Of a stretch of 64,000 bases of DNA, positions 25,339-41,040 are shown in pieces (position 1 is the stretch's first letter; every line of letters starts with the position of its first letter). The stretch covers positions 19,194 through 83,193 of the forward strand of contig JABJFC010000057.1 of assembly GCA_018662925.1 (NCBI GenBank), given 5' to 3'. Under the pieces are notes generated by a model. It did not search any database. It saw only the letters and a list, made by a program, of their open reading frames with translations, and was not told where the DNA came from. Both the position numbers and the translations under genes were made by a program. Source of the stretch: Alphaproteobacteria bacterium (GTDB lineage: Bacteria; Pseudomonadota; Alphaproteobacteria; 16-39-46; JABJFC01).

Positions 25339-26309
25339 GGCATCGTCCTACTTTGCGAAGGGAAAATCCGTTCAGCCACCCGAAGGCGCGCTGAACGGGA
25401 TCTGGGATTTTGGGAGATCTCAGACTGGGAAGGGGTAATGGCTTTGCGTGTAAGAAGCTTAAAGGTTTTATGCCCTTCTTCGGCTTCAGGCACATAACGG
25501 GAGAGCCCTTTATGTTCACTTCGATTCTTTAAAAAATGCTTTACGCATCGATCTTCAATGGAATGAAAAGAGACCACAGCAAGTTTTCCTCCTGGAGCGA
25601 GGATATTTTCAGCGGATTCAAGAGCCCGCTGGAGCTCTCCCATCTCGTCGTTGATGTATATCCGTATGGCTTGGAATGTCCTGGTCGCAGGGTCAATTTG
25701 GCCCTTTTTAGCTGGAATGATACGACGGACAATCTCAGCCAGTTGTCTCGTGGTGGTAATGGGCGTTTTGGCTCGCTCTCTTACGATGGCCCGCGCAATG
25801 GGGCGAGATTTCCGTTCATCTCCAAACTTATAGAGTATGTCCGCAATTTCTGTCTCTCCCAAAGTGGCCAAAGCGTCCGCGGCCGTTTCTGAAGATTCGC
25901 CCATGCGCATGTCTAAGGGACCATCCTTTTGAAAGGAAAAGCCTCGCTCAGCCTCATCAATTTGGAAGGAAGAGACGCCCAGATCTAAAGCGATGCCATT
26001 TATTTCTTTGGCGCCGTTTTCCTTGAGGAGCTGCTCCATATCGCCAAACTTTCCTAACAGAAACTTGAATCGCTGAGGAAACTCTTTTTTTAGGGAGGCA
26101 GATCGTTTGATGGCATCTTTGTCGCGATCTATGGCCCAAACAGTGCACTTGGCGGCGTTGAGTATGGAGCGACTATAGGAACCAGCGCCGAAGGTTCCGT
26201 CTACGTAGGTCTTCCCGTCCTCTGGGGCAATGGACTCTATAATCTCGTTGAGGAGGACGGGAATGTGCTGGGAGGCACATTGGGAAGGAGAAAAGGGAGG
26301 AGGGCTCAT
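25335..26309 (-). CDS. rsmH: 16S rRNA (cytosine1402-N4)-methyltransferase RsmH/MraW
   Basis: SAM-binding DGTFGAGSYS motif, 324 aa, synteny. Confidence 0.93.
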   Translation of the reverse strand: MSPPPFSPSQCASQHIPVLLNEIIESIAPEDGKTYVDGTFGAGSYSRSILNAAKCTVWAIDRDKDAIKRSASLKKEFPQRFKFLLGKFGDMEQLLKENGAKEINGIALDLGVSSFQIDEAERGFSFQKDGPLDMRMGESSETAADALATLGETEIADILYKFGDERKSRPIARAIVRERAKTPITTTRQLAEIVRRIIPAKKGQIDPATRTFQAIRIYINDEMGELQRALESAENILAPGGKLAVVSFHSIEDRCVKHFLKNRSEHKGLSRYVPEAEEGHKTFKLLTRKAITPSQSEISQNPRSRSARLRVAERIFPSQSRTMP

Positions 26310-26782
26310 CGGGCACCCTCCTCAGGGGAAGAAGTATCAGTTAATTTGAGTGTTGCCTTCTTTTCGTGGATACGTTTACGAGCCTCACTCTGATGTTTTT
26401 GGAAGATTTCTGGCGACCATATCTGAAAAGTAGCTCCGCGACCCACGAATGCAGCATGGGATTCGATTTGAGCATGGGCCAAAAGTTCTTGTGGGAGCAT
26501 GATGCGCCCCTCACTGTCGAAGGGCAATTGATGGGAGTCAGCAAATATCGTGGAAGCAAAGTCATCTTGAGTCTCCGAAAATAAGTCGAGTCGATCAACG
26601 CTCTGAGAGAGTTGCGTCATACGATCGATCCCGCAGGCTTCAATTGAGGGAGATTTATAAGAACGAAAGGCAACAATCCCGAGGAATGGTTGTCCCGCAA
26701 GGGCCGTCCGAAAGGTAACAGGTACCGATACTCGACCTTTCTTGTCGATCTTATTTGTAAATGTGGAGAGAAATAGGGCCAT
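26306..26782 (-). CDS. mraZ: Transcriptional regulator MraZ
   Basis: 158 aa, duplicated MraZ/SpoVT-AbrB-like halves (DxxxR motifs), first gene of dcw block. Confidence 0.93.
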   Translation of the reverse strand: MALFLSTFTNKIDKKGRVSVPVTFRTALAGQPFLGIVAFRSYKSPSIEACGIDRMTQLSQSVDRLDLFSETQDDFASTIFADSHQLPFDSEGRIMLPQELLAHAQIESHAAFVGRGATFQIWSPEIFQKHQSEARKRIHEKKATLKLTDTSSPEEGAR

Positions 26783-27455: not shown

Positions 27456-28355
27456 GTGGAAGCTAAACAATCCAAGATAATTCATTTCATTATTTTTTTG
27501 TCTCTATTTCAGGCCTTATTATTGGCACAGGCCCCAATTTGTAAAGCATCCATCTGTGAAGAGCTTCGTTCGGAAGTGGATATTGACTTGGAACAGGCAG
27601 AGGTACTTTACACGAAAGAAAATGGGTATGTGGTATTAAAGGAGGGTCCTTATTATGCTTTATCCTTTAATGGAGGAGAGGATGTGCAGGGAACAAAAGA
27701 TCCTTCAGACGTTACTGAGTTGCCGCTTTTGTTTGCACGCTTGATGTCTATGGGGGTTTTGTATCCCAAGCATATCAAAAGAGTTCTTATGGTGGGTTTG
27801 GGGACAGGTATGTTGAGCAGTTACTTGCACCACTATTTCCCCGAGGCACACATTACCTGTGTTGATCACAATCCATTGGTTATTGAGGCGGCCAAGGCAT
27901 ATTTTGGGGTGCCAGATACAAGTCGGCATAAACTCGTTCTTGCGGATGGATTGACGTTTTTGAAAGACACCCAAGAAAAGTATGATCTAATCTTCTCTGA
28001 TGCTTACATGGAATTTATTCCAACCCATATGGCAACTGCTTCCTTTTATGCACTCGCTAAGGAGAAGTTGGCACCAAACGGTGCCTTGGTCCAAAATGCT
28101 ATTCCCTCCAAGCATCTCAATATTCAGCAAGTGCGGGAGAAGCTGAGTCAAAGTTTTGCACATGTGGATACGTACAATGAAGATGTGGCAGGAAATGCCC
28201 TGCTAGGAGAGGATGAAGAAGGGGATAATACAATTCTCATTGCTTATAACGGTCCCAAAATATCCAATAAAAGTTTCAAAAAGAGAGCAATAAGGCTTCA
28301 AAAGCAACATGGATTTCGTTATGGTCTGAGAGAGTTGTTGAAATGTTGGATGTAG
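27456..28355 (+). CDS. Secreted spermidine-synthase (polyamine aminopropyltransferase, PABS)-like protein, paralog 1
   Basis: GTG start with RBS; N-terminal signal peptide; PABS-like N-domain then Rossmann core VLMVGLGTGMLSSYL…ITCVDHNPLVIEAAKAYFG…YDLIFSDAY…NGALVQN. Confidence 0.6.
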   Translation: MEAKQSKIIHFIIFLSLFQALLLAQAPICKASICEELRSEVDIDLEQAEVLYTKENGYVVLKEGPYYALSFNGGEDVQGTKDPSDVTELPLLFARLMSMGVLYPKHIKRVLMVGLGTGMLSSYLHHYFPEAHITCVDHNPLVIEAAKAYFGVPDTSRHKLVLADGLTFLKDTQEKYDLIFSDAYMEFIPTHMATASFYALAKEKLAPNGALVQNAIPSKHLNIQQVREKLSQSFAHVDTYNEDVAGNALLGEDEEGDNTILIAYNGPKISNKSFKKRAIRLQKQHGFRYGLRELLKCWM

Positions 28356-29288
28356 GTGGGAGAAGCATTTTTACGGAGATGTTATTGTAGAGGGGCAAAG
28401 GTGAAATTGAGAAGAACTAAACTTTTCTTTGCAGGGGTTATTATTTTTCTAGGTTGTCATGGGAGTGTCCAGGGACAGTTTGATAAAACTCTTTGTAAGA
28501 AACAAAGTAAGGAACTACACTTTGATATTAAAACGCAGGATTCTTTGAGTGGAGATAGGTCAGGAAAAAGCTCTTTTTCGGTTTCAAAAAAAGGAAAATA
28601 TATAAATTTTTCTTTTGGTGATAATGTCCAGCGAATAAGAAATTCAGAGGATCCCACAGAACTATCACAATTTTCGGCTCGTTTGATGACGCTAGGCCTT
28701 TTATATCCAAAAAAATTAGAAAAGATTCTTTTTATCGGTTTAGGAAGTGGGCAAATAAATTCCTACCTTCATCAATTCGCTCCAGAGATAGAGATAACCT
28801 GTTTAGAGGTTAAATCTGAGGTCGTTAAGGCTGTGGAGAATTATTTTGGTTTGTCTCCGGATCAGAAAATCGTGACCGAGGATGTGTGGGAACACCTCCA
28901 AAATACGAAAGAAAGATACGATATTATAATTTTGGATTTTGACGTAATATCTTCCCTAGGCAAACATTCCGGTGATCTGTCTCTATATAGGCTGATACGA
29001 AGTAAATTGGTAACCGGCGGTGTTTTTGTTGGAAATTTTCTCACAAAAATTGATCGTTCTCCCAGTGACATACGAGAAGTCCTTTTGAAGGTTTTCGATC
29101 ATGTTGATGGATTCAATGTACGGGAAGAGCCTAGTAAATTTGAGGAACAAAGAAGTGATGATGCAATTTTAATTTCATACAACGGCCCTCCTAAAACAGA
29201 AGAAATACTTTTAAAGCGAACGTTGGGTCTTCAAAAAAAATATAACTTCCGATACAATATCAGTGAACTTTTTTTGTGTTGGTACTAA
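28356..29288 (+). CDS. Secreted PABS-like protein, paralog 2 (start uncertain: GTG 28356 / GTG 28401 / TTG 28407)
   Basis: ILFIGLGSGQINSYL…ITCLEVKSEVVKAVENYFG…YDIIILDFD…GGVFVGN; hydrophobic signal-like N-terminus. Confidence 0.55.
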   Translation: MGEAFLRRCYCRGAKVKLRRTKLFFAGVIIFLGCHGSVQGQFDKTLCKKQSKELHFDIKTQDSLSGDRSGKSSFSVSKKGKYINFSFGDNVQRIRNSEDPTELSQFSARLMTLGLLYPKKLEKILFIGLGSGQINSYLHQFAPEIEITCLEVKSEVVKAVENYFGLSPDQKIVTEDVWEHLQNTKERYDIIILDFDVISSLGKHSGDLSLYRLIRSKLVTGGVFVGNFLTKIDRSPSDIREVLLKVFDHVDGFNVREEPSKFEEQRSDDAILISYNGPPKTEEILLKRTLGLQKKYNFRYNISELFLCWY

Positions 29289-29299
29289 TGAGGTTAATA

Positions 29300-30241
29300 A
29301 TGAAAAATCGCAAAAATGAAGGTGGTTTAGAACGCTATAGCTGCTTTGTTAAGTACTGTTTTATTGTTTTTACTATTGTTACTACTTGTTTTCAGTTGGC
29401 AACAGCATCGGATACTGCAAATCCCTTAGCTTGCTATCAACTTTCAAGCCAACCAAAATTCAATCTGAAGAAGGCTGACGTCATTGATGTAATTCAAGGA
29501 AAAGATATTTCGGTATATGTTTTAGAAGTTGGTCCCCATATAGGAATGTCATTCGAGAGAAAACATGATATTCAGTCTATGTATAACCCCTTAGATAGTA
29601 CTGAACTGGCTATGAGTTATGGGCGGATCATGACTCTAGGAGTTCTGTATCCTACGACAAAAGAGATTAAGAAAGTTCTTATGATAGGCCTAGGAGGGGG
29701 TAGAATTACCAGTTACTTGAGTCAGTATATGAAAAACACACATTTCACTGGGGTTGAGCTTAGTCCTGAGGTTATAAAGGTTGCTCAGCAGTATTTTGAC
29801 GTAAAACCTTCAGAAAAAATTAAGATCGTAGAAAGTGAAGGTTGGAAGTTTTTGAAGGGGAGTAAGGAAAAATTTGATTTAATTTTCTTAGACGCATATT
29901 GGAAGGAAATTCTTCCTGAACATCTTAAAGGTGAAGCGTTTTATAAAGAAGTGAAGAAGCATCTTGTTTCTGGTGGAGCGGTTGTTCAAAATGTATTCAA
30001 TAAAAGGTATTTTTTGTCAGAGGCGGAAGATGTAATGACAAAGCTTTTTGATCATGTGGATATTTTTGAGAGGGGACATAATTTTATTTTAATTGGGTAT
30101 GATGGGCCTCTAAAAACAGAAAGTGAGAAAGTAACACTAGCCGAGACATTGCAGAAAAAATATGACTTTCGATATAACCTTAAGGATTTATTTGAATGTT
30201 TTTTCTACGAAAGTATTCCAGACGCGCCGAGGAAGAACTAG
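29300..30241 (+). CDS. Secreted PABS-like protein, paralog 3 (ORF from 29276; ATG 29300 has GAGG RBS)
   Basis: VLMIGLGGGRITSYL…FTGVELSPEVIKVAQQYF…FDLIFLDAY…GGAVVQN; signal peptide. Confidence 0.6.
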   Translation: MKNRKNEGGLERYSCFVKYCFIVFTIVTTCFQLATASDTANPLACYQLSSQPKFNLKKADVIDVIQGKDISVYVLEVGPHIGMSFERKHDIQSMYNPLDSTELAMSYGRIMTLGVLYPTTKEIKKVLMIGLGGGRITSYLSQYMKNTHFTGVELSPEVIKVAQQYFDVKPSEKIKIVESEGWKFLKGSKEKFDLIFLDAYWKEILPEHLKGEAFYKEVKKHLVSGGAVVQNVFNKRYFLSEAEDVMTKLFDHVDIFERGHNFILIGYDGPLKTESEKVTLAETLQKKYDFRYNLKDLFECFFYESIPDAPRKN

Positions 30242-30458
30242 CAGTTACTATTCATAAAAGTTTTAAAACAAGTCTTTTGGGTTTATTCCATAATGCAAAG
30301 CCAATTTGAGAGTTTTTGCTTTATCTTTCGGAGTTTTCTTTGTATAAATTATATAAAAATTGGTAGTTTCAAGGGAGCTACAGAGTGATCTGTTTTTCGG
30401 TACAAAACTTCTTCCCGTATTTTTTCCGTAAAATAGGGGCTATTCCAAAGATCAATTT

Positions 30459-33400
30459 ATGCTGAATGGATCCAATACAAAAACAATTATAGCTCTATGT
30501 TTTAAGAGTCTGACAATATTCAATTATTATTTTTTTATTGTCGCTTTCTTGCTGATTCCTGAATATTCTCTCAGCACTCGTATTGGAATTTTTGAGGAGT
30601 CAGACGAACCTCCCCCAGGCTTCGAAGCTGTAGATGTTGCTGAAGAGACTAACTATGTGGAAGCCTATTTTTTCGGGAATTTGCTTGGTAGTTCTCTAAT
30701 GACATACCAAGATAACAAGGTAGTTATTAAAAATCCGGGCCTACTTGTAAAGAAAATGAAAGGGCTTAAAGATCCTGAAGCTGTCCTTAAAGCATTAACA
30801 GGAGAAATAGCTGGCAACTCAGAGTTAGCATGTAGTAATGAAAATGCACGACAACCCTGTGGAATTTTAAGTCCCAAAGTAGCTGCAGTTATTTATGACA
30901 GATTCAAAAGAGAATTGTCTATTTTTGTTAATGCAGATCTCTTAGACAAAAAAGAACTTGAATTTGATCAACTGCCACGATCAACGAGTAATTTTTCTTT
31001 CCTGAATAATGTTTTTGTGAATTCGACAGGGAGTAAACGAGAAAGGAACTATACTGTTAACAATAGAAATGTTTTTGCCTATAAAGAGGCATTTATAGAT
31101 ATTGACTCGAGTTATTTCCTGGATGAAGGTGATACGTCTTTATCTACTGTTGGTGAAAAGCGTTTTCGTTTCAGTACAATTACTGGAAATTTGAATAGAT
31201 GGAATAAGACATTTCAGATTGGAACTGTGAGAAATGAAGGAAGTAACTTTCTATCATCTCAGCTTCTTATAGGAGGTAAGTTTTTTACCACACTTAATCA
31301 ACTTACAGACCTAAATAGCGCCCAGTCGACTCCAATAGAGGTTTTCCTAGCTTTACCCGGGGAGGTCCAAGTTTTTAGGGATAAAAAACTTCTGTACGCT
31401 CAAAACTATACGGCTGGCAATCAGTTCATCAATACTTCTAGTTTTCCAGCAGGAAATTACGATGTTCAAATCAAAATTATTGACATAAATGGCAACGTAA
31501 CGGAAACAACACAGGCTTTTGTTAAGACGGAAGTTATTCCTCCATTTGATTATCCATTTTACTATGGGAGTTTTGGATTTATTGAAAATACAGCAAATAG
31601 AACTCAAGAGCTGTTTCCTCAGTTTTTTAATGATTTGGTTGGGCAGATGGGGACGGCTGTAAGAGTAGCTAACTCTTGGGCCTTAGCTGAAAATGTTCAG
31701 TTGGCTCGGAGTGTTGCTGCATCAGAGTCTAGTGTAATTTTTGTCGATTCTGACATAACGTTAAAGGTTGGTGGGTTAATTACAACAAAGAAAAATTATG
31801 GATACTTTTCGGATCTACGTTATAGAGCAAGTTTTTTTTCTGGAGGCGGAAATTTTCTTAGTATGTTTGGTCCAACAAAGGCTCAAAGGAACAAAATAGC
31901 TTCTGAATTTGACCCTGTTTCTGGGACGCGTGTAAGATATTCAGCCTTTCTTAATTTGCCTCTATATAAAGGAAATTTTTTGTTCAACACTAGTTATGGA
32001 AAATCAGATGTTGGGACAAAGAATAGAGCTTACACTGCCACCTTTAGTTATCCTCTTTACAGGGAAAGTGGCATTTTTGCAAATTGGTTAACAAGCTATA
32101 ATGTTAGAAATAACGACAGGCTCTATATATTTGGTATAAATGTGAGTTTTTCCCATGATAATTGGAGACACGCGTTTCGGGGGACTTACAATAGGGAGCA
32201 AGATATTGAAAATCAGCTTAGTGAACGTGATACACAGGATTATACTTTAAGTTCTGCTTGGACAAAATCTGAATCTGGGCGCTATGATTTGGGAGCAGGA
32301 GTGACTGGGAGTCATACTTCAGCGTCTGATTCTTTAAGGCCATCCGTATCATATAGCGATAATTTTGGGCGCTTTCAAAGCAGTGCGTCTTATAGCAAAC
32401 CTATTTCTGGGGCAATTAGTCGGCAGTTTAGTTTTTCGGGGGACACAAGTTTTATTGCTGCAGAAGAGAAGAGCGGTTTCTCGAACTCTTCCCGTAATAC
32501 TACGGGGATTTTTGTGGATGTAATATCTTCTGAGGCTGACCAGGAATTTGAAGTGCTCATTAATAACCGCCCTGCTCAAGTTATTAAGTCAGGAACTGCT
32601 GCATTCATACAACTGTCACCGTTCAAGACTTATATGGTTTCTATTAACTCCTTAGCGGGTAATCTGTATACGTATAATCCTGAACCAAAGTTTGTCACTT
32701 TGTATGAGAGTAATATTCAACCACTTTCGTGGGAAGTGCAAAAAGTGTTTTTGCTTATTTCACAGTTTGTAAGGCCTGATGGAAGTTTTGTCCAATATGC
32801 AGGTGTGGAAGGTGGAGTTGATTTAGCCCAAACAGATGAAAATGGGTATATTCAAGTTGAAATTCCTGAGGGGACAGAAAAATTGTTTGTTGAACCCATT
32901 GAAGGAGCTTTTTGTGAAGTTAAGGTTGGCGGGTTGGCTCCGGAAGATAACTATGTATATAAGGAGAGTATAGTCTGTGTTCCTACAAAGAAGAGGCCAA
33001 AAAGAATTGATAATAAAAGAGAGAATAAATATGAAGGGGAAGTTCTTTTTGAAGAACTTAAGAAGGATGAAACTTCAGAGGGGAAAATAGAAGGTGATAT
33101 ACCTGTTGTTACAGAAGAGGAGATTCAATCACCATCGCAGAAACAGCCAGATCATTTGAATGCTATCGATCCTGGAAAGACTAGTTTTGAGGAAGAGTCC
33201 ATGGAAGGAGTTCAAGATCAAAAAGAGATGGCAGAAGAGAGTATTCAAGAAGAAGTCGGTGCAGGAGTTTCTTCGCAAGAGAATATTCAGCCTGAAGATA
33301 ATATCGAGGATCTTGATGGAATTTCTTCAAAATCGAAACCAGTGATTGAAGAATCGGTGCACAGAGAAATACCAATGATTGATATCGATAAAAATATTAA

Positions 33401-34043
33401 TAAAACAACTGAGAACAAGAAAGCAACAAGATTTAGTAAAGAATTAGTTTATCAAGAAGGGAAGCCAGCTATTTCACCAAAACGAGCTAAGCCTATGAAT
33501 AAGAAGTTTAAGAAAGAACTGGTTCATCAAGAAGGGAAATCAGAAGGAGCTGAAAAGAAGGGTACATCTACAAACAAAAATTTTGAGAAAGAATTAGTTC
33601 ATCAGGAGGGCAAATTAGTTGATCTAGTAAAACAAGGCAAGGCATCGGGCAGACAGTCTGAAAAAGAACTGGTTTATCAAGTGCGTGATTCTTCAGTGAA
33701 CAGGGCAAGTGGTCAAGCAGTAAATCCTACTAGAGTGACTAAATCTGTAAAACGCCTAAAGGAGCTGGTATATCATGAGGTAATTCCTGCTGTTGAGAAA
33801 GCTATGAACAAAAAATCTACGCAACGCCCTGAAGTCGGTCCGACTAAGAATAAGGTTTACGGAGAGAATAGTCTATTAGGGATAGTTCCTAAAGAAAAAG
33901 CCAAAAAAGGTATCAAAACAGGGCCCATCCCAAAAAAGGCTGTGTATTATGAAAAAGGACATCCTGAAAGTCTTGGAGAAAAGACACCTTCCTCGAATAG
34001 AAAAGAGCTCGTTTATCGAGAAGTTTCTTTTCTAGAGCGGTAG
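30459..34043 (+). CDS. Giant (1194 aa) outer-membrane usher-like protein with C-terminal ~200-aa extension carrying six KELV[YH]QEG-type repeats
   Basis: N-terminal hydrophobic segment. Middle region (…GEVQVFRDKKLLYAQNYTAGNQFINTSSFPAGNYDVQIKIIDINGNVTETTQAFV…) resembles the conserved usher segment seen in the bona fide usher at 41041 (…VEVFINESTRL…GPFLIEDLPVISGEGDIKIVTTDLLGRRQEV…). Beta-rich Ser/Thr/Asn/Tyr composition. Repeats at ~33430-34040. Confidence 0.4.
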   Translation: MLNGSNTKTIIALCFKSLTIFNYYFFIVAFLLIPEYSLSTRIGIFEESDEPPPGFEAVDVAEETNYVEAYFFGNLLGSSLMTYQDNKVVIKNPGLLVKKMKGLKDPEAVLKALTGEIAGNSELACSNENARQPCGILSPKVAAVIYDRFKRELSIFVNADLLDKKELEFDQLPRSTSNFSFLNNVFVNSTGSKRERNYTVNNRNVFAYKEAFIDIDSSYFLDEGDTSLSTVGEKRFRFSTITGNLNRWNKTFQIGTVRNEGSNFLSSQLLIGGKFFTTLNQLTDLNSAQSTPIEVFLALPGEVQVFRDKKLLYAQNYTAGNQFINTSSFPAGNYDVQIKIIDINGNVTETTQAFVKTEVIPPFDYPFYYGSFGFIENTANRTQELFPQFFNDLVGQMGTAVRVANSWALAENVQLARSVAASESSVIFVDSDITLKVGGLITTKKNYGYFSDLRYRASFFSGGGNFLSMFGPTKAQRNKIASEFDPVSGTRVRYSAFLNLPLYKGNFLFNTSYGKSDVGTKNRAYTATFSYPLYRESGIFANWLTSYNVRNNDRLYIFGINVSFSHDNWRHAFRGTYNREQDIENQLSERDTQDYTLSSAWTKSESGRYDLGAGVTGSHTSASDSLRPSVSYSDNFGRFQSSASYSKPISGAISRQFSFSGDTSFIAAEEKSGFSNSSRNTTGIFVDVISSEADQEFEVLINNRPAQVIKSGTAAFIQLSPFKTYMVSINSLAGNLYTYNPEPKFVTLYESNIQPLSWEVQKVFLLISQFVRPDGSFVQYAGVEGGVDLAQTDENGYIQVEIPEGTEKLFVEPIEGAFCEVKVGGLAPEDNYVYKESIVCVPTKKRPKRIDNKRENKYEGEVLFEELKKDETSEGKIEGDIPVVTEEEIQSPSQKQPDHLNAIDPGKTSFEEESMEGVQDQKEMAEESIQEEVGAGVSSQENIQPEDNIEDLDGISSKSKPVIEESVHREIPMIDIDKNINKTTENKKATRFSKELVYQEGKPAISPKRAKPMNKKFKKELVHQEGKSEGAEKKGTSTNKNFEKELVHQEGKLVDLVKQGKASGRQSEKELVYQVRDSSVNRASGQAVNPTRVTKSVKRLKELVYHEVIPAVEKAMNKKSTQRPEVGPTKNKVYGENSLLGIVPKEKAKKGIKTGPIPKKAVYYEKGHPESLGEKTPSSNRKELVYREVSFLER

Positions 34044-34184
34044 ACATAAGGATTTTATTGTTGTCATTAAATAGAAGAGATGTCTTATTAAGAATTTCCT
34101 AATACATCTTCAGGTTTTTTTGTGTTACTATTTACTTGTATTGTTGTTTTAATTATTTGTTTAGTTCAATTTTAATGGTGGTAA

Positions 34185-34442
34185 ATGATTAAGGTTACTA
34201 TATTATTCTTTTCATTTTTATGTACATTTTGTTTGATAAATGAAGAGGTGTTAGCCAAAAATATAACATACGGTATTTTAGCTCCAGAATTCTCTAAAAG
34301 TCAGCATCAGAAGCTTAAGGAGTGCAACCTAACGTGTTCAGTTTACTTGGGGGGAGCGTGTGCTCAAGTGCCTAATTGCAGCTTTTGTTGTGATAGCCAG
34401 TATGGCCCAGGGACAGAAATACTTCACAATTTTAGTAGTTGA
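34185..34442 (+). CDS. Small secreted Cys-rich peptide (85 aa, 8 Cys in the mature 60 aa)
   Basis: signal peptide MIKVTILFFSFLCTFCLINEEVLA; CNLTC…GGAC…PNCSFCC pattern; AT-rich context, weak RBS. Confidence 0.3.
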   Translation: MIKVTILFFSFLCTFCLINEEVLAKNITYGILAPEFSKSQHQKLKECNLTCSVYLGGACAQVPNCSFCCDSQYGPGTEILHNFSS

Positions 34443-34504
34443 GCCAAGAGACAGCCCACTGTTATTGGGAAGTAAAATTTTTCATGCAATTCTTGTATAA
34501 TGTA

Positions 34505-35239
34505 TTAGTTTGTTTGCCCTGCACTTTTTTTATCTAGAGTCTCTGCAACCGTTTCAAAAGAGACAGGACCTGCTTCAGGGATTTCAAAAGTGTAAGTGTT
34601 TCCAGCATAGAGGCGTTTGCCAGTTACCCCTGTTTCCACACATTTATCAGCTGAAGTGCATTGTTGGATCTTCCCAAAAAGCAGATTTGTATTGCCGATA
34701 TTTTTTACGGTAACAGACTTGCCATTCCGAATTGCAGAAATTTTTGCAACTGGTTTTATAGGAGGTATTACTAACTCAACTAAAAAAGCAACATTTACAC
34801 GTAAAAATAGTCGTTTTTCACCTTGTGAAACTGGTGCTACACGCTTTAGTTGTCCCAAAACGGGCATCACCTTAATTCTGTAGATGCGTTCTTGTTCACC
34901 TGGCGGTTTTAAAAGTGAAACACGAATGCTTCTCCTTTGATTCGGTGCAAGGACTAATTTTGGAGGTGTCAGAAGTAAGCCAACTTCCTTTGGATTTCGA
35001 CTTTCTATGGAACGTTCGTTCGGCATGCCAGGATTCTCAATAAGTTTTAGAGTAGTGCCAACGTATGACTTTTTATCTTTTTGTTGGTTGAAAACTGAAA
35101 TATCTTGATACGGCTTATCTTTTAATTTGAACTGTGTCCTTAATGGAGAGACGATAATACGTGCACACGCATGATGAACACACAGCGTACACGCTAATGT
35201 CATAAAAATTACTTTTGAAAAAAAACTTCGAAGCTGCAT
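34505..35239 (-). CDS. Periplasmic pilus chaperone (PapD/CsuC-like)
   Basis: signal peptide; IIVSPLR…, LLLTPPKLVLAPNQRRSIRV (chaperone …PP.f.l.p…q.iR motif), overall similarity to the chaperone at 46490. Confidence 0.6.
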   Translation of the reverse strand: MQLRSFFSKVIFMTLACTLCVHHACARIIVSPLRTQFKLKDKPYQDISVFNQQKDKKSYVGTTLKLIENPGMPNERSIESRNPKEVGLLLTPPKLVLAPNQRRSIRVSLLKPPGEQERIYRIKVMPVLGQLKRVAPVSQGEKRLFLRVNVAFLVELVIPPIKPVAKISAIRNGKSVTVKNIGNTNLLFGKIQQCTSADKCVETGVTGKRLYAGNTYTFEIPEAGPVSFETVAETLDKKSAGQTN

Positions 35240-35463
35240 CTTATTCTTTATTATTCATCATATATAATCACTGACCACATGATACTATTACCTAAATCCG
35301 TTGTCAAACCGTGGATGGAAATTAATTTATTATAAAATTGATATTTGCGTTTAAGGTTCATGTTAAATTTTTATATTTCCTGCTGCAAAATTTAGCTAGA
35401 ATGTGTTAAAGTATGTGCTAAAATACTAACAGAGACGGGTAACTTTTAAGGATTTGCGGAAAA

Positions 35464-36117
35464 ATGCGTTATAGTGATTGGAAAGGCCTTTGTTTTCAAG
35501 ACGTGAGGGTGGCTGTTAGGGTTCTTTCAGTGGCACTTTTTCTCTGCTATTTTATTGGTATTTCGTTTTCACAAGCTGGCTCTTCTGGAGGAGGAGGTGG
35601 TGGTGGAGGTGGTGGTCCAGGCGGGGGAAGTCCTTCGAAGGTTATTCCAGTGGGTGCCTCGATAGGGCTCCAAATTTTCATTCAAGATTCTAGTATTGAT
35701 GGACTCACTTTTGATGAAATATTAGATTCAACTGCGGGTGACGTTACGGCTCAGGACAAAATATGTGTCTTTAGCAATGTGAATTTTGGAGGTTTAGCTA
35801 GGGCGTACACAGTGACTGTAACGAGTGATAATGGGGAGTACAAGCTGTTGAATGCAGATGCTGCAGCTGCGGCAACGCCTGGTGGGCAGATGGTATATTC
35901 GATCCAATTTGCCGATAATGTGAATGGCGCTGGTGCACAACAGGTGCCCGAGGGCGCAACATTGACGGGGTTTCAAGCAACTTCTGTTGGTAAGTGTAGA
36001 GGAAACAATCCTGGAAATAATTCTGTTGTTATAGCTACAATTCTGGAGTCGGATTATCAAGCAAAGCTGGCTGGTGACTATCTTGATAATATTACTGTGA
36101 CAGTTGCCTCGCCGTAG
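35464..36117 (+). CDS. Divergent SCPU/Csu-type pilin-like secreted protein with (Gly)n tract
   Basis: signal peptide; G12-PGGG run; IGLQIFIQDSSIDGLTFDEI…ICVFSNV…GKCRG…YLDNITVTVASP (two Cys, C-terminal Y.D.ITVTV as in SCPU pilins); paralogous to 36500/37264. Confidence 0.5.
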   Translation: MRYSDWKGLCFQDVRVAVRVLSVALFLCYFIGISFSQAGSSGGGGGGGGGGPGGGSPSKVIPVGASIGLQIFIQDSSIDGLTFDEILDSTAGDVTAQDKICVFSNVNFGGLARAYTVTVTSDNGEYKLLNADAAAAATPGGQMVYSIQFADNVNGAGAQQVPEGATLTGFQATSVGKCRGNNPGNNSVVIATILESDYQAKLAGDYLDNITVTVASP

Positions 36118-36499
36118 ACTTTTCTTTTAAAAAACAATAGCTAATTAGAGTTTTAAGCTAAGCCTAATATAATAATCTTTGAGAATGTGTGTATTCTGAG
36201 TTTTAGAATTGAACCATAGAATAAAACTCAACAAAAACAATCGAATGTATTATTTTTGTATGGGTTTAGCATCTGACATCTCTTGTCCCAATGAAAAACA
36301 GATCATTTATCTCATTGCAACTCCTTAAATGCTTTAGAAAAATGTACCAAAAATAGTTCGGTTTATTATTTTAATTAATTCAAATAGATATTGTTATGCA
36401 ATGAAAAAGAAATAATAACTTTAGACTATTTGTGGTAATATTATATTGAGATGTTTGTTTCATTGTGGTTTTAAAGTTTGTGTTTAAAGAGGTGGAGTT

Positions 36500-37102
36500 A
36501 TGTCAGGAAAGTTTAGTAGCGTTAAACGTTTAAATGTATTTGCTGCAAGTGCTTTAGGCTTGGGGCTGCTCTTGTCTTCGTCAACAGGCATTAAGTCGGC
36601 GTCTGATAGTGATGATATAACTCTGACATTGGCTGTTGGACAACAGATCTTTATACAAGATTCCAGCATTGATAACATAGATTTTGGTACTGTTTCTGAG
36701 GTTACAAGCGGTGATTTAGATGGAACAGATGATCTATGTGTTTTTAGCAATGTGAAGTCAGGCACAGGTAATCAAACTAAGGCCTTTAAGCTTACACTTA
36801 CCACAGCAGAGACGGCAACCTTTCAATTGGAAGAGGACGGTGGAGCCGGCACGATAGCCTACTCTGTGGAATGGATTGATGAAATCGGAGGATCATTTGG
36901 TGATGGTGGAAATAGTACTGTAACGTATAACACCGCTGTTGACGATCAAACTGCGACAACCATTGGTCAGTGTCGAGGGTCGGGTGGAAATGACAATACG
37001 AAGTTGTTTATCCGAATACTTGAGGCAAACTATACTGAATTAGATGCTGCAACGTACAATGGTACTATTACTGCAGTGGTCGCTCAAGCTACGGGCACCT
37101 AA
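36500..37102 (+). CDS. SCPU/Csu-type pilin-like secreted protein, tandem paralog B1
   Basis: signal peptide; VGQQIFIQDSSIDNIDFG…LCVFSNV…GQCRG…YNGTITAVVAQATGT; ~80% identical to 37264. Confidence 0.5.
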   Translation: MSGKFSSVKRLNVFAASALGLGLLLSSSTGIKSASDSDDITLTLAVGQQIFIQDSSIDNIDFGTVSEVTSGDLDGTDDLCVFSNVKSGTGNQTKAFKLTLTTAETATFQLEEDGGAGTIAYSVEWIDEIGGSFGDGGNSTVTYNTAVDDQTATTIGQCRGSGGNDNTKLFIRILEANYTELDAATYNGTITAVVAQATGT

Positions 37103-37263
37103 TACGGGATAGTAATGGCCTTCCATCATTTCGATCGTATGGAAGAATTAAGGAGAGAGCGTTTGTTTTGTGTAGGTAGTTTTGAGTTCTTAATTTTAGC
37201 CTCATCTCAAGGAAAGTTTGTTGAGGCGCTTTAAGTTGATTTTGAAGAGTTGGAGACATAATT

Positions 37264-37866
37264 ATGTTGAGGAAACTTCGTGGTATAGAATCGAGAGTTG
37301 TGTTGGGTGCAAGTTTTTTGGCATTTCTGGTGGCTTTTTTTCCTCCCACAGGCCTGAAGACTGCATCGGATAGCGATGACCTCACCTTAACAATCGCGGT
37401 CGGGCAACAGATATTTATACAAGATTCCAGCATTGACAATTTGGATTTTGGGACGTTAATTGAGTCTACAACTGGTAATTTAGATCAATCTGACGATCTT
37501 TGCGTTTTTAGCAATGTGAAGTCAGGAACAGGTAATCAAACTAAAGCCTTTAAGCTTACACTTACCACAGCAGAGACGGCAACTTTTCAACTGGAAGAAT
37601 CCGGTGGGTCAGGTACCGTTGCCTATTCTGTGGAATGGATTGATGAAATCGGAGGAGCATTTGGTGATGGTGGAAATAGTGCTGTAACATATAACACCGC
37701 TGTCGACGATCAGGCTGCGACGACTATTGGTCAATGCCGAGGATCGGGGGGAACTGACAATTCCAAGCTATTTGTGCGGATAATTGAAGCTAGCTATGAA
37801 GCATTGGATTCTGGGACGTACGATGGAACAATCACTGCAGTGGTCGCTCAAGCGACTGGGACGTGA
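37264..37866 (+). CDS. SCPU/Csu-type pilin-like secreted protein, tandem paralog B2
   Basis: same length (200 aa) and near-identical to 36500..37102. Confidence 0.5.
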   Translation: MLRKLRGIESRVVLGASFLAFLVAFFPPTGLKTASDSDDLTLTIAVGQQIFIQDSSIDNLDFGTLIESTTGNLDQSDDLCVFSNVKSGTGNQTKAFKLTLTTAETATFQLEESGGSGTVAYSVEWIDEIGGAFGDGGNSAVTYNTAVDDQAATTIGQCRGSGGTDNSKLFVRIIEASYEALDSGTYDGTITAVVAQATGT

Positions 37867-38007
37867 TTAGTTTGATAATTTTCATTCATTCGAATATATG
37901 AAGTATAAGAGTGGAGGCCATTCTTTTCATTTCTGCTTGGGTGTTTTATTTTCAGTTCCAAGTAGTATATAGTGACGTGGTATGTTTCCGTTTAGCAACA
38001 GGTACGT

Positions 38008-38517
38008 TTGGATATGTTTATTAGCCGGAATGGGTTGCAGTTTATTTTGTTTCTTCTAGCATCCTGTTTTGTTTCGCAATGTGCCCAGGGGAAAGTTGCT
38101 ATTTTGTCGCAGAATGGGGATGGGACATGGATGGGGACTTTAACTTTTGGGATCAGTGGATCTGGGTACAATGATTTTTGCATATATCAAACAAAAAAAA
38201 GCAAAAAAGCTAAATCCAAAGGGCAATACCGTTATTCAGTAACCATATCGAGCGATAACAATTTTAATTTAGTAGAACCTGTTTCTGGGGAAAAGATCCC
38301 TTATCGAGTTTACTTTACCGATAAGGCCTCAGACGTTGGTCGGCGTGAAGTATCTAACCGTGTTCCTATTAATAAACTGACAACTTCGATTTCAAAGGAG
38401 AAGAAATGCAAAGAGAATGCTCGATTGCGTGTGATAGCCCCTTCTAAGGGATTTGAGCTAGCTTTGTCTGGGAGGTACTCGGACCACTTAACGGTCACTG
38501 TAGATTCTGATGAGTAA
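38008..38517 (+). CDS. Divergent pilin-like secreted protein (possible SCPU-type subunit)
   Basis: signal peptide; two Cys; C-terminal YSDHLTVTVDSDE resembles SCPU C-terminal strand. Confidence 0.4.
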   Translation: MDMFISRNGLQFILFLLASCFVSQCAQGKVAILSQNGDGTWMGTLTFGISGSGYNDFCIYQTKKSKKAKSKGQYRYSVTISSDNNFNLVEPVSGEKIPYRVYFTDKASDVGRREVSNRVPINKLTTSISKEKKCKENARLRVIAPSKGFELALSGRYSDHLTVTVDSDE

Positions 38518-38689
38518 GCTTGTAGTAATTCATAGACACATCTTTACTTGCGTAATGATGTGTCAGATAGCAACTTCTAGCGGTGCTTTACTTACATATT
38601 TATCCCATTTATCGCCATGCAACCCCACAAACCCCATTCCATGGACAATGATAGCCTGATATAGTGTTTTGGAGCTTATAGGGGGAGAT

Positions 38690-39589
38690 ATGGTGAAAAC
38701 ACGGCTATTTTATGAAATTATGTTGCTGGTTTTAGTGCTGGTGTGGCCTGTGGCAGGATTTGGAGCCGATTTTGGCCCTGTTTCTGGGGAAATTTGCCAG
38801 AATCTATATAATCAGCCCCCAGCGGATCCAAAGCTGGCTAATTTGGTTGAATATCGCGCCTCTTCTCAGAATCCAGTCTATGTTCTTGAACAAAATCAAT
38901 ATCTTATTATGTCATTCGGGGCTGTGCATGACCTTCAATCCATGTATAATCCCAAAGATGAATTGGAGGTTCCTCTTGTTTATCAAAGGATTATGAGCAT
39001 TGGGGCTGCCTATCCAAAAAATTTGAAGAAGGTGCTTATGCTGGGCTTGGGGGGAGGCCGTCTGACCCAGTATCTGCGTCAGTATCTGAAAAGAGCTGAA
39101 TTTACAGTTGTGGAACTAGATCCAGCTGTTATTAGCGTGGCCAAGGCGCATTTTGGGGTTCAGGAAAAGGATAAGCATCTTAAAATTGTCCAGGCTGATG
39201 CATGGGAGTATCTTAAAGATTCTAAAGACAAATTTGATCTCATTCTCGTGGATGTTTGTGTGAGTGACACAGTTCCTCCACAGGTCAAGTCGGCAGATTT
39301 CTATAAAGAGGTAAAAGCCCATTTGGCAAAAGGCGGGACCGCTGTTCAAAATGTTTCCCTAAAGCACTATTATTTGGGGGAAGCTGAGGCGGCTATGAGA
39401 GAAGCTTTTGGCGGCTTTGATTCCTTTGAAACCGATATGAACTTTATCCTTGTGGCTCCAGAAATGATCACGAAACATTCAGGTGTTCTTTCCTATCGTG
39501 CCAAGAGTCGTCAAAAGAAGTATTCTTTTCGATATCCTTTGGGCGAATTACTAGGGTGCTTTCATCGGAAAGAACCCATTTCCGACTAA
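38690..39589 (+). CDS. Secreted PABS-like protein, paralog 4 (ORF from 38669; ATG 38690 follows GGGGGAG)
   Basis: VLMLGLGGGRLTQYL…FTVVELDPAVISVAKAHFG…FDLILVDVC…GGTAVQN; signal peptide. Confidence 0.6.
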   Translation: MVKTRLFYEIMLLVLVLVWPVAGFGADFGPVSGEICQNLYNQPPADPKLANLVEYRASSQNPVYVLEQNQYLIMSFGAVHDLQSMYNPKDELEVPLVYQRIMSIGAAYPKNLKKVLMLGLGGGRLTQYLRQYLKRAEFTVVELDPAVISVAKAHFGVQEKDKHLKIVQADAWEYLKDSKDKFDLILVDVCVSDTVPPQVKSADFYKEVKAHLAKGGTAVQNVSLKHYYLGEAEAAMREAFGGFDSFETDMNFILVAPEMITKHSGVLSYRAKSRQKKYSFRYPLGELLGCFHRKEPISD

Positions 39590-39617
39590 TGTAAAGTCTG
39601 ACTTTACATTAGTCGGA
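39581..39617. terminator. 37-nt perfect palindrome (tccgactaatgtaaagtc t gactttacattagtcgga) overlapping the stop codon of PABS paralog 4, followed by a second hairpin ggctcggggagggagcc + TGTTTT (39644-39668)
   Basis: read directly. Confidence 0.5.
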
Positions 39618-39758
39618 TTTCCATAAAGATTGACTGTGGAAATGGGCTCGGGGAGGGAGCCTGTTTTGCCAAAGTCTCCCCACCCCGTTACACCATTAAA
39701 TTAAAAAACAAAATGAACAAATAATATTGTATAATAGAATTAAATATAAAATTTTACT

Positions 39759-40265
39759 GTGGTGGTCATGTTGAATAAATATTTAAGTATTATTACTTTA
39801 TCTATTGTTTTATGTGCATTTTCTGAGGCGCAGGCGTCGGGGGTGAATGGCTCTTTTCAAGTATCTGCGACTGTTTCGGCTTCTTGTTCTGTATCAACTA
39901 ATGATCTAAATTTTGGAAATTATAATAGCGGTCAAAATGGCGATTTGGATGCGACGGGACAGCTGGGAGTAGCCTGTACCAACGATACTTCCTATACAAT
40001 TGATGTGGGAACGGGATTATATGGGAACGGATCTAGCAGGAAATTGAAGAGTGGCAATTCGGCGACGGCATCACTGAACTACCAAATTTATAAAGACGCA
40101 GGCAGAAATAGTGTCTGGGGCGAAGGATCAGGCGGAGCCAGTAAAGTAGCAACCGGAACGGGCGGACAACAAAGCCACGCTATGTATGGTCGGATTCCCG
40201 CGGGACAATCGGGAATGCCCACTGGTGCGTATTCAGATCATGTAATCGTCGAGGTAACATTTTGA
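39759..40265 (+). CDS. Spore coat protein U (SCPU) domain pilin (CsuA/B-like)
   Basis: signal peptide; SCSVSTNDLNFGNY…GVACT…LNYQIYKD…VWG…YGRIPAGQ…GAYSDHVIVEVTF. Confidence 0.8.
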   Translation: MVVMLNKYLSIITLSIVLCAFSEAQASGVNGSFQVSATVSASCSVSTNDLNFGNYNSGQNGDLDATGQLGVACTNDTSYTIDVGTGLYGNGSSRKLKSGNSATASLNYQIYKDAGRNSVWGEGSGGASKVATGTGGQQSHAMYGRIPAGQSGMPTGAYSDHVIVEVTF

Positions 40266-40432
40266 TTTATAATAGTTTTTTCAGAATGTTCTCAAATTAT
40301 CTAAAATTTTAAAAAAATTTTGGTTTGTTAACCTTTTGTTAACCTTTTCACTCTAACATTAAAGATAGAGGCAAATTCTCTGACGAGAATATTGACGCAT
40401 CTTACTGTTAACAAAGGAAATACAGGAGGACA

Positions 40433-40939
40433 TTGGCAATGAAACTAAAAATGACAAGCATAGCCTTGATTCTTGTGGGAGCGCTCGTCATGGGGACTGC
40501 AAAGGCTGATTCTTCAAATGATTCTTTTCAGGTACTCGCAACTGTTGTGGCAAGCTGCACGGTGACGAGCAATGATTTGAACTTTGGCACCTATGAGGTA
40601 TCGGGGATTCATGCCTCCAGTAACTTAAATGCAACCGGCAGCCTGGATGTGAATTGTACGCAAAATATTGCCTATGACATCGGTATGGATAATGGTTTGT
40701 ATTATGGGGCTGGGGGTCGTCAGATGGAGAGTTTGACTGGAACAGATAAACTTTCTTATCAGATTTATAGAGATTCTTCTCGGTCTAGCCAGTGGGGGGC
40801 CGTTATTGGATCAAATACAGAGTCCGATATTGGTACGGGCATTATTCAGTCTCATACTCTATATGGTACTATTCCAGGTGGTCAAAGTGCTGCTGTTGAT
40901 GATTATTCGGATACGATTGTGGTTTCTGTGACTTTTTAA
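40433..40939 (+). CDS. Spore coat protein U (SCPU) domain pilin
   Basis: signal peptide; SCTVTSNDLNFGTY…VNCT…LSYQIYRD…QWG…YGTIPGGQ…YSDTIVVSVTF. Confidence 0.8.
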   Translation: MAMKLKMTSIALILVGALVMGTAKADSSNDSFQVLATVVASCTVTSNDLNFGTYEVSGIHASSNLNATGSLDVNCTQNIAYDIGMDNGLYYGAGGRQMESLTGTDKLSYQIYRDSSRSSQWGAVIGSNTESDIGTGIIQSHTLYGTIPGGQSAAVDDYSDTIVVSVTF

Positions 40940-40965
40940 CTTTTTAACCGGCATACCTTCCAATT

Positions 40966-41001: not shown

Positions 41002-41040
41002 TACGATAATGCAAAAATAATGCTATAAAAACAGGGATGT

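Follow-up and report, generated by a model that had tools for sequence, protein, structure and literature searches.

Introduction

A gene of an uncultured marine bacterium, labelled Alphaproteobacteria at NCBI, raises two questions: to which family of outer-membrane proteins does its large product belong, and what could be the role of the long tail with which this product ends? The open reading frame occupies positions 30459–34043 (+) of the 64,000-nucleotide stretch of DNA analysed here (the window), starts with ATG and encodes 1194 amino acids plus a stop; the same product has been called in independent metagenome assemblies. The original prediction had described a usher-like protein with a Lys-rich last ~200 residues carrying six KELV[YH] motifs, and this description was confirmed. 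Here, we report that the gene product is almost certainly an alpha-clade ('alternate', CooC/CfaC/TcfC/EcpC-type) fimbrial usher, an outer-membrane pilus-assembly pore, and we weigh what its tail might do. The features of the locus are collected in Table 1.

Table 1 Features of the usher gene and its neighbours (positions in the window)
Feature	Residues	Positions	Strand	Basis or remark
N-terminal leader	1–39	30459..30575	+	hydrophobic core TIIALCF...FFIVAFLLIP; putative Sec signal peptide
Usher body, ending at Cys819...Cys840	46–840	30594..32978	+	phmmer relatives, invariant Cys, Foldseek
Periplasmic N-terminal domain	about 50–160	30606..30938	+	NCBIfam TcfC positions 23–184; strands 63–157 with pLDDT 65–84
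Predicted beta-barrel, split by plug	about 179–675	30993..32483	+	
Plug-position domain (TcfC E-set-like)	290–353	31326..31517	+	PF16967; after sixth barrel strand in model
C-terminal periplasmic domain (CooC_C)	749–822	32703..32924	+	PF15976; pLDDT 70–88
Linker	841–989	32979..33425	+	first 20 residues basic, then acidic, E/Q/S/P-rich; predicted disordered
Basic repeat module	990–1194	33426..34040	+	net +21, 22% K+R
Motif copy 1, KELVYQEGK	994–1002	33438..33464	+	
Motif copy 2, KELVHQEGK	1019–1027	33513..33539	+	
Motif copy 3, KELVHQEGK	1044–1052	33588..33614	+	
Motif copy 4, KELVYQV	1069–1075	33663..33683	+	
Motif copy 5, KELVYHE	1101–1107	33759..33779	+	
Degenerate seventh copy, KAVYYEKG	1160–1167	33936..33959	+	
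Motif copy 6, KELVYRE	1182–1188	34002..34022	+	6 residues from C-terminus
85-aa ORF		34185..34442	+	signal-like N-terminus, 8 Cys; called as gene in L002–L004
Cognate periplasmic chaperone (TcfA/CfaA-like)		34505..35239	-	NCBIfam TcfA E = 1.3e-15; weak PapD_N
Pilin-like subunit, 217 aa		35464..36117	+	paralogue of next three ORFs; subunit ORF of L006 cluster, E = 3e-5
Pilin-like subunit, 200 aa		36500..37102	+	weak similarity to SCPU subunit at 39759
Pilin-like subunit, 200 aa		37264..37866	+	75% identical to 36500 ORF over 200 aa; 84% over residues 29–200
Pilin-like subunit, 169 aa		38008..38517	+	pilin paralogue

Identity and family of the usher

The usher identity put forward in the original prediction is borne out by Pfam, phmmer, Foldseek and hhalign, which agree. 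The TcfC E-set-like domain (PF16967) was matched with 68.9 bits against a Pfam cutoff of 29.4, and CooC_C (PF15976) with 28.2 bits (E = 2e-6), 0.8 bits short of its cutoff of 29; the precomputed annotation grades the latter match 'weak', and the relatives have CooC_C. The NCBIfam TcfC model (NF011838) was matched partially, over the N-terminal domain only, and with 43.3 bits against an equivalog cutoff of 1428 a TcfC orthologue is ruled out, the protein being a member of the family only. The JGI/IMG label for the protein is 'Mat/Ecp fimbriae outer membrane usher protein'. A phmmer search yielded 983 relatives at E <= 1e-3, the closest at no more than 33% identity and every match lying within about residues 10–863; the best 150 of them are collinear with the usher over residues ~46–840. 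The homologue alignments begin only at about residue 46, just before the PPPGFE sequence (residues 51–56). A pair of cysteines, Cys819 and Cys840, is invariant in the relatives and closes the usher body.

A structure search led to the same family. The best 19 PDB matches in Foldseek are all FimD or PapC (E = 1e-25 to 6e-7, ~880 columns aligned), with identities of about 11–14% and, the model being poor, TM-scores of only 0.34–0.39. These two ushers (PDB entries 3RFZ, 6E14, 7LHG and 2VQI) are the best structural matches across the N-terminal domain, barrel, plug and C-terminal domains; unlike the present protein, they finish at CTD2 and are tail-less. Residues ~46–840 have the make-up of a common usher, with an N-terminal domain in the periplasm, a large predicted beta-barrel holding an E-set plug, and C-terminal periplasmic domains that close with the cysteine pair. 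Six strands precede the plug in the model, and the plug of PapC is likewise positioned after the sixth barrel strand.

The original prediction had also likened the central part of the protein to the usher encoded at 41041. The resemblance is lost in BLASTP, in which the best match, in the plug region, is not significant (E = 0.12), but it holds at the profile level: hhalign gave E = 5e-5 and a probability of 67% over 544 collinear columns at 15% identity, running from the plug, where the two plug regions align, to the last cysteine. The two ushers belong to different families. Whereas the usher at 41041 matches both PF00577 (Usher) and PapC_C, neither domain was found by Pfam in the 1194-residue usher at E <= 0.1; a classical or sigma usher is rejected, and the protein belongs instead to the alpha or alternate family. 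No usher clade is further removed from the classical ushers than the alpha clade (PMC3559732), which fits the weak similarity between the two genes. Its members CooC (CS1), CfaC (CFA/I), TcfC (Salmonella Typhi) and EcpC/MatC share the TcfC E-set and CooC_C signature, and for CfaC pilus assembly and secretion have been shown by genetics or in-vitro assembly (PMC7531860). Typical alpha-clade ushers lack the 354 additional C-terminal residues seen here.

It is most improbable that the protein is a large outer-membrane barrel of another class (an autotransporter or a TonB-dependent receptor, for example), with motifs unrelated to pili. Its TcfC and CooC_C domains are usher-specific, the leading Foldseek matches are ushers aligned over the full length, the profile alignment with the PF00577 usher is collinear, and a cognate chaperone and pilins adjoin the gene; the Pfam and NCBIfam searches gave no match to families of TonB-dependent receptors, plugs or autotransporters.

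Gene neighbourhood

The partners of the usher would be the TcfA-like chaperone and the products of the four pilin-like genes (35464–38517) that follow it, just as other alpha-clade systems comprise a TcfA/CfaA-type chaperone and small pilins. The chaperone is 30–33% identical (E = 1e-26 to 1e-34) to ORFs adjoining the ushers of relatives in three clusters (L006, L007 and L011), and all three share the syntenic arrangement of usher, TcfA-like chaperone and pilin paralogues. Among the pilins no match to the CS1, CblD or MatB families was obtained, and no obvious two-domain tip adhesin was seen in the cluster. Four signal-bearing SpeE-like (spermidine-synthase-like) paralogues flank the cluster, whereas the relatives' clusters are without them.

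The usual usher stop position and the chaperone gene are separated by about 1.5 kb of lineage-specific sequence, which adds 354 residues to the usher. The Cys-rich 85-aa ORF, which has no family match in Pfam or NCBIfam, falls within the same stretch, which is missing from the relatives' loci. The DNA encoding the tail is part of a low-GC block that was maybe horizontally acquired.

Composition of the C-terminal extension

The extension (residues 841–1194) consists of an acidic linker followed by a basic repeat module. The net charge of residues 861–990 is -22. The linker, which the relatives lack, has a pLDDT of about 25 and no secondary structure; the basic module stays below 40, with three low-confidence helices, and over residues 846–1194 the value is about 25. 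No hydrophobic stretch was found among 25-residue windows of the tail. As modelled, the 354-residue tail is disordered.

The consensus of the motif is [F]-x-K-E-L-V-[YH]-[QHR]-E-(G-K), and in 20,000 shuffles of the 205-residue segment no 4-mer ever occurred six times. The regular spacing ascribed to the repeats applies to copies 1–4, which are exactly 25 residues (75 nt) apart, but not to the later copies, with gaps of 32 and 81 residues. Repetition had also been claimed at the nucleotide level, with aaagaattagtttatcaagaaggg, which is motif copy 1 (33438–33461), quoted as an example. This is true of the 27-nt motif, in which the units are 77% identical, and fails for the other 48 nt, in which identity falls to 40%; exact stretches common to the units are only about 12 nt long, and Tandem Repeats Finder detected no 75-nt array in the tail. 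In the KELV codons, 29 synonymous and no non-synonymous differences were counted over the 15 pairs of copies. Together with the decayed sequences between the motifs, this ratio implies purifying selection on the peptide. The reading frame of the tail is free of stops in 354 codons, whereas the other five frames contain 14–42; at the local base composition (38% GC), the probability of such an open frame is about 6e-13. We consider it very likely that the tail is translated and under selection.

Occurrence of the tail

The exact 1194-residue protein is present on 13 contigs. Five independent metagenome contigs, from different samples and from three sources (ENA, JGI and Logan), were read at the DNA level and are identical across the gene, by which an assembly artefact, raised as a possibility in the original prediction, is ruled out. 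Among the relatives, 119 of the best 150 end at most 15 residues from the last conserved cysteine, and a Legionellaceae relative (31% identical) stops one residue past it, with the gene in the chaperone position 5 nt downstream. Only eight of the 150 extend more than 150 residues beyond this point and none has the sequence of the tail, so that the tail is indeed as unusual as had been supposed. No homologue of the tail was found at E <= 0.1 in a search of billions of proteins, and no Pfam family was matched in residues 841–1194. An Alphaproteobacteria MAG encodes a relative (P0105) with a K/R-rich disordered tail.

The tail could also be a young, near-neutral read-through product, in which an insertion or the loss of a stop fused low-complexity sequence to the usher and the repeats reflect past internal duplication. 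Its orphan sequence, its predicted disorder, its occurrence in one clonal population only and the low-GC, possibly horizontally acquired block would all agree with this, and a relative (P0004) with a spurious-looking long C-terminal extension illustrates that such extensions do occur in database entries of the usher family. Nevertheless, we regard such an origin as quite unlikely: an open frame of this length would scarcely arise at 38% GC without selection, KELV has been kept in all six copies with exclusively synonymous changes while the sequence between the copies decayed, and the layout of an acidic linker and a basic end parallels that of the related ushers described below.

The original prediction had further suggested a hotspot for repeat-number variation, and phase-variable surface proteins commonly have repetitive tails. 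The four units of exactly 75 nt might then form a contingency locus, in which slippage or recombination varies a surface epitope. This suggestion is not supported, and we give it hardly any weight. The units share stretches of only about 12 nt and are ~40% identical outside the motif, and the array goes unscored by Tandem Repeats Finder. Apart from fragments, there are no length variants in the three members of the 90% cluster or in the five contigs, which represent one clonal population and are a weak test of copy-number variation. Furthermore, the C-terminus is periplasmic in the solved ushers, which would place it away from immune or phage pressure.

Usher–SPOR fusions among relatives

Six relatives (P0024, P0032, P0058, P0140, P0143 and P0142) carry TcfC and CooC_C and end in a SPOR domain, a peptidoglycan-binding fold. 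Their extension is joined at the same point as in the 1194-residue usher, past the last conserved cysteine. The charge layout is also the same: in the three proteins measured, the linkers are 98–199 residues long and acidic (net -4 to -19), and the terminal parts range from neutral to basic, with a net charge of +1 to +18. The difference lies in the terminal module, which is a recognizable folded SPOR domain (PF05036) in these relatives and a disordered array of short motifs in the present usher. Both of the taxon-labelled SPOR-bearing ushers, including P0024, come from Alphaproteobacteria MAGs and so bear the same label as the source of the window. A cryptic SPOR domain in the tail was rejected, since PF05036 gave no match and hhalign against the SPOR domains of the related ushers returned a probability of 0.06%. 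In the open-access literature we found no paper on usher–SPOR fusions.

Possible roles of the tail

The C-terminal domains of ushers are periplasmic in the structures of FimD and PapC, from which a periplasmic position would follow for the tail as well. Of the two locations that had been envisaged, the periplasm is by this analogy probably the right one, and exposure at the surface is not supported. In the periplasm, the acidic linker may act as a flexible spacer, and the basic, multivalent motif array could bind to an anionic component of the envelope, with peptidoglycan as the most likely candidate. The tail would in this way hold the pilus-assembly platform to the cell wall, as SPOR domains would in related ushers. 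The peptidoglycan- or ligand-binding module put forward in the original prediction is thus plausible. We favour a tether to the cell wall or envelope, tentatively, on account of the SPOR domains that six relatives carry at this position behind an acidic linker; the argument for peptidoglycan binding is one of analogy plus charge. The concept of an outer-membrane component linked to the cell wall by a periplasmic module that sits on a flexible segment is shared with the C-terminal domain of OmpA, Pal and AtaA–TpgA (PMC12523085; see also PMC12826056), the last of these being an outer-membrane adhesin anchor reinforced through a peptidoglycan-binding partner (PMC12523085). In these systems the link is made by a folded domain of the OmpA type or by a separate protein, whereas the present usher has no such domain.

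Alternatively, the motif array may be a docking arm for a protein partner, its six linear motifs capturing and concentrating chaperone–subunit complexes near the N-terminal domain by 'fly-casting'; periplasmic proteins encoded nearby, namely the four secreted spermidine-synthase-like paralogues and the Cys-rich 85-aa ORF product, are further candidate partners. Linear-motif arrays typically consist of short conserved motifs with variable linkers between them, set in a disordered region, and the alternation of Y and H with flanking E/Q is suggestive of a specific contact over pure charge. The neighbourhood is compatible with such a partner, the 85-aa ORF being in the same ~1.5-kb stretch, lacking in relatives, as the tail, and the SpeE-like paralogues flanking this cluster and not those of relatives. 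We nevertheless consider a docking arm unlikely. The tail has no sequence similarity to any local protein, and the SPOR precedent in relatives favours peptidoglycan over a protein partner. Mimicry of a donor strand is also improbable, KELVYQE being without the 4–5 alternating hydrophobic residues of donor strands, exemplified by ITLTLAV in the pilins.

Taken as a whole, the explanation of an alpha-type usher with a selected periplasmic tail that serves as a tether is a reasonable candidate, to which we assign somewhat less than an even chance. A broader proposal, which we put forward with some doubt, is that the KELV[YH] array might be a previously unrecognized periplasmic short-linear-motif module and that, together with the usher–SPOR fusions of marine Alphaproteobacteria, it might indicate that some alternate-pathway platforms are coupled to the cell wall or to an envelope partner. 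In a bolder version, the tail would recruit the co-located secreted spermidine-synthase-like paralogues or chaperone–subunit complexes. If the broader proposal is true, chaperone–usher machines would not always be free-floating units of the outer membrane, and a long disordered C-terminal arm would be a means of coupling them.

The usher gene and its repeat-bearing tail

The usher gene opens with an ATG and encodes 1194 amino acids. Its C-terminal 205 residues contain 22% Lys+Arg and carry a net charge of +21, and they directly follow an acidic stretch (aa 861–990, net −22). Six KELV copies lie in the basic segment together with a degenerate seventh, KAVYYEKG; no 4-mer was seen six times in any of 20,000 shuffles of this segment, and all six frames of the window hold no further KELV motif. 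Copies 1–3 share the extended consensus [NK]-K-x-F-x-K-E-L-V-[YH]-Q-E-G-K, and ELVYQEGKPAISPK is an example of a peptide from the tail. The start codon, the composition and the shuffles bear out the original prediction of a 1194-residue ORF with a basic C-terminal tail and six KELV[YH] copies. The regular spacing claimed for the array was found in part: all six copies exist, but the fixed interval of 25 aa (75 nt) is limited to the first four. The nucleotide-level repeats also described are weak; pairwise identity reaches 77% in the 27-nt motif but 40% in the remaining 48 nt of each unit, and Tandem Repeats Finder reported no 75-nt array on the DNA.

The six cores were compared in 15 pairs, in which all 29 of the 29 codon differences are synonymous (TTA/CTG/CTC, AAA/AAG, GAA/GAG, GTT/GTA), while the sequence between the motifs has decayed to near-random identity. 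For this reason the pattern, judged from the codons, is the signature of purifying selection on the peptide motif. Recent DNA duplication or a slippage-prone repeat as the origin of the motif does not fit synonymous-only changes in KELV and decayed spacers, and it is very improbable that the tail is a contingency repeat or a surface epitope. The tail frame contains no stop in 354 codons, against 14–42 in each of the other five frames, and the probability of such an open frame is ~6e-13 at this base composition; the reading of the tail as a neutral read-through product, which has to be weighed here, seems to us quite unlikely.

Copies in other assemblies

The exact 1194-aa protein was present on 13 contigs among those read, and the five with readable DNA are identical to the window across the whole gene. 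Their samples and sources differ (two ENA scaffolds HAWL17-1_SAMN0522..., JGI 3300025614, Logan SRR3719644 and ENA ERZ4201035), so that misassembly, named in the original prediction as a possible refutation, is ruled out and the repeats are real. The names of the contigs suggest that the samples belong to a marine time series. One of the five contigs, L005, shows 39 mismatches, all within its last 49 nt, which is a contig-end artefact. All copies of the gene belong to one clonal population, and a comparison of copy number between strains is therefore uninformative. The NCBI records (MBT4879939.1 and MBT5390013.1) derive from MAGs labelled 'Alphaproteobacteria bacterium', and JGI/IMG names the protein 'Mat/Ecp fimbriae outer membrane usher protein'.

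Family placement of the usher body

Pfam identifies a TcfC E-set-like domain at aa 290–353 (68.9 bits against a cutoff of 29.4) and a CooC_C 'CS1-pili formation C-terminal' domain at aa 749–822 (28.2 bits against a cutoff of 29). It gives no match to PF00577 or PapC_C, both of which are matched by the usher at 41041, and the NCBIfam TcfC model covers the N-terminal domain only, far under its equivalog cutoff. When 1.84 billion representatives were searched exhaustively, phmmer returned 983 relatives, the nearest 33% identical and all collinear with aa ~46–840. A word-indexed protein search with the whole usher gave only four distant matches, which a body profile recovered again without adding any; the family profile found no meaningful relative in a PDB sequence search. 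GTDB genomes yielded no close relative in a single-protein scan, and one Legionellaceae MAG usher, without a tail, in a scan with a 3-sequence alignment.

AlphaFold2, given an alignment of five sequences, produced a poor model (mean pLDDT 56.7, pTM 0.36). Its fold is all-beta: six strands come first, the TcfC domain forms a beta-sandwich, and ~16–18 more strands and C-terminal sandwiches follow; in PapC, too, the plug comes after strand 6. The central part had been said to resemble the usher at 41041. BLASTP finds no significant similarity (E = 0.12, in the plug region), but a match emerges at the profile level, where hhalign gives E = 5e-5 and a probability of 67% over 544 collinear columns that start at the plug and reach the terminal Cys pair. 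Such profile-only similarity agrees with the alpha clade (CS1/CFA-I, 'alternate' pathway) being the most distant branch of ushers (PMC3559732). The family evidence thus points to an alpha-clade usher, the structural evidence being weaker, and the protein adds a new, divergent member to an already known family; that it is not an usher at all is scarcely credible.

The tail as an addition to the usher

Among the best 150 of the 983 phmmer matches, 119 end at most 15 residues from the last conserved Cys (Cys840 here), only eight extend more than 150 aa past it, and none contains a stretch aligned to the tail. In the Legionellaceae relative (31% identity) the usher ends one residue past that Cys, and a minus-strand chaperone homologue follows 5 nt on; in the window the interval from the last Cys to the chaperone is ~1.5 kb and holds the coding sequence of the 354-aa tail together with a secreted, Cys-rich ORF of 85 aa. 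From these alignments, the tail is an addition to a normal usher.

The tail has no homologue at E ≤ 0.1 in an index of 5.8 billion proteins, no Pfam family and no hydrophobic 25-aa window. AlphaFold2, run on the full-length protein, gives a pLDDT of ~25 for aa 846–1194, with three low-confidence helices; on this model, which has no alignment depth for the tail, the tail is best described as an intrinsically disordered region. A motif-encoding DNA pattern found no KELV array in JGI metagenome contigs, the source samples evidently not being in the collection, and returned three single chance matches (two phage-capsid-like ORFs and one non-coding stretch). KELVYQEGK occurs exactly once in each phage-capsid-like ORF (L008 658–684 and L010 650–676; Ga0180007_10081559 and Ga0180008_1051193); in these unrelated contigs it was judged a chance match to the degenerate pattern. 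No mention of the KELV motif strings was found in the literature. As far as these searches reach, the tail sequence and its motif array are new and without relatives; other long C-terminal extensions do exist in the usher family. One relative of 1152 aa, P0004, carries an Arg/Ala/Gly-rich C-terminal extension of ~370 aa that resembles high-GC DNA translated out of frame or by read-through and not a real domain, so that each long tail in this family has to be checked individually.

Usher–SPOR fusions among the relatives

Six of the best 150 representatives (P0024, P0032, P0058, P0140, P0142 and P0143; ~4%) are TcfC + CooC_C ushers with one or two C-terminal SPOR domains at the position of the tail, joined to the usher by a long disordered linker. 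SPOR is a peptidoglycan-binding fold. In the three fusions measured, an acidic linker of 98–199 aa (net −4 to −19) leads into a terminal part of neutral to basic charge (net +1 to +18), a charge layout like that of the window tail, in which a mostly acidic linker of ~150 aa precedes the +21 module. The window tail differs from the fusions in giving no SPOR signal, and a cryptic or degenerate SPOR domain was rejected (hhalign probability 0.06%); any wall binding would thus be achieved in a different way. Another relative, P0105, has yet another K/R-rich disordered tail, and P0024 and P0105 come, like the window protein, from MAGs labelled 'Alphaproteobacteria bacterium'. No description of ushers with SPOR or peptidoglycan-binding tails was found in the open-access literature, and the fusions may merit attention in their own right.

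Genomic context

The TcfA-like chaperone is 30–33% identical to ORFs adjoining the ushers of relatives (loci L006, L007 and L011), and two of the four pilin-like ORFs are related to subunit ORFs in L006. With usher, chaperone and subunit genes all at the locus, the alpha fimbrial system is complete. No chaperone-like ORF of at least 100 aa lies inside the second fimbrial cluster; the TcfA-like gene is the sole chaperone detected in the region and might serve both systems. The second usher ends in an acidic low-complexity tail of ~50 aa (aa 787–839). ORF85, between the usher tail and the chaperone, is a gene call in several assemblies and has no family match.

Features of the usher locus (nucleotide positions in the window unless marked aa)
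Feature	Position	Strand	Details
mraZ (dcw cluster)	26306–26782		
SpeE-like ORF 1	27456–28355	+	class I methyltransferase fold; PF01564; NCBIfam PRK04457-like, below cutoff
SpeE-like ORF 2	28356–29288	+	paralogue, as ORF 1
SpeE-like ORF 3	29276–30241	+	paralogue, as ORF 1
Alpha usher	30459–34043	+	1194 aa
Basic C-terminal segment	33426–34040	+	aa 990–1194
KELV copies	aa 994, 1019, 1044, 1069, 1101, 1182	+	six copies
Degenerate copy KAVYYEKG	aa 1160	+	
ORF85	34185–34442	+	signal-like N-terminus, eight cysteines
TcfA-like chaperone	34505–35239	−	downstream of usher; NCBIfam E = 1.3e-15
Four paralogous pilin-like ORFs	35464–38517		signal peptides, Cys pair, donor-strand-like N-termini (e.g. ITLTLAV)
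SpeE-like ORF 4	38669–39589	+	paralogue, as ORF 1
Second fimbrial cluster	39759–44153	+	sigma/Csu-type; three SCPU-domain subunits and usher
PF00577 usher	41041–43560	+	
RES-domain toxin gene	44315–44992	−	
Overlapping upstream ORF	44989–45384	−	presumed antitoxin

Of the four SpeE-like ORFs, which resemble spermidine synthases, three immediately precede the usher and the fourth lies between the fimbrial clusters. All four begin with a hydrophobic, signal-like segment and have conserved Cys close to either end. Secreted proteins of this kind would be surprising, since neither SAM nor dcSAM is expected in the periplasm. SpeE-like genes are absent beside the alpha ushers of relatives in the loci compared, and a general link between the two was accordingly not seen. 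Just past the dcw cluster, the G+C content at ~28000–40000 is 0.36–0.41 against 0.44–0.47 on both sides; this block, which takes in the alpha fimbrial cluster and most of the SpeE-like genes, may be an island gained by horizontal transfer. The RES-domain toxin gene and its presumed antitoxin stand right after the fimbrial region.

Proposed function of the tail

Usher C-terminal domains are periplasmic in the FimD and PapC complexes, and by this analogy the tail should be periplasmic as well. The outer membrane lies ~10 nm from the peptidoglycan, and 150 disordered residues would, by a rough polymer estimate, span ~10 nm from end to end. We tentatively suggest that the acidic segment could be a spacer and that the basic multivalent motif array could bind peptidoglycan or another anionic envelope component, whereby the bound array would tether the pilus-assembly platform. 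This possibility is favoured because the usher–SPOR relatives, with their shared charge layout, are the most informative clue. A conceptual precedent is AtaA–TpgA, in which the anchor of an outer-membrane adhesin is reinforced through a peptidoglycan binder (PMC12523085). The selected motif might instead make the tail a docking arm for a protein partner, which we consider unlikely. KELVYQE is also unlikely to mimic a donor strand or the chaperone G1 strand: it lacks an alternating run of hydrophobic residues, resembles none of the local proteins and shows hydrophobic moments that are only modest.

Implications

Chaperone–usher pili, a textbook class of machine, are generally portrayed as self-contained units of the outer membrane that do not depend on the cell wall. 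The tail, real and by its codons selected, is confined to one uncultured clone, and the tether would be a mechanism drawn from analogy; the practical importance, for one uncultured lineage, is modest. Should the tail do nothing, it would still illustrate cleanly how a conserved machine can carry a de novo-like extension. Were KELV[YH] to bind sacculi or one defined partner, it would represent a new envelope-targeting motif of very small size, possibly useful as a tag and for recognizing similar tails elsewhere. The selected, disordered, multivalent tail and the SPOR domains, which sit at the same place in their ushers, suggest that for alpha-clade systems outside enteric bacteria the self-contained picture leaves something out. 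Taken together, they suggest that fixing or placing the assembly platform with respect to peptidoglycan may be a recurrent solution.
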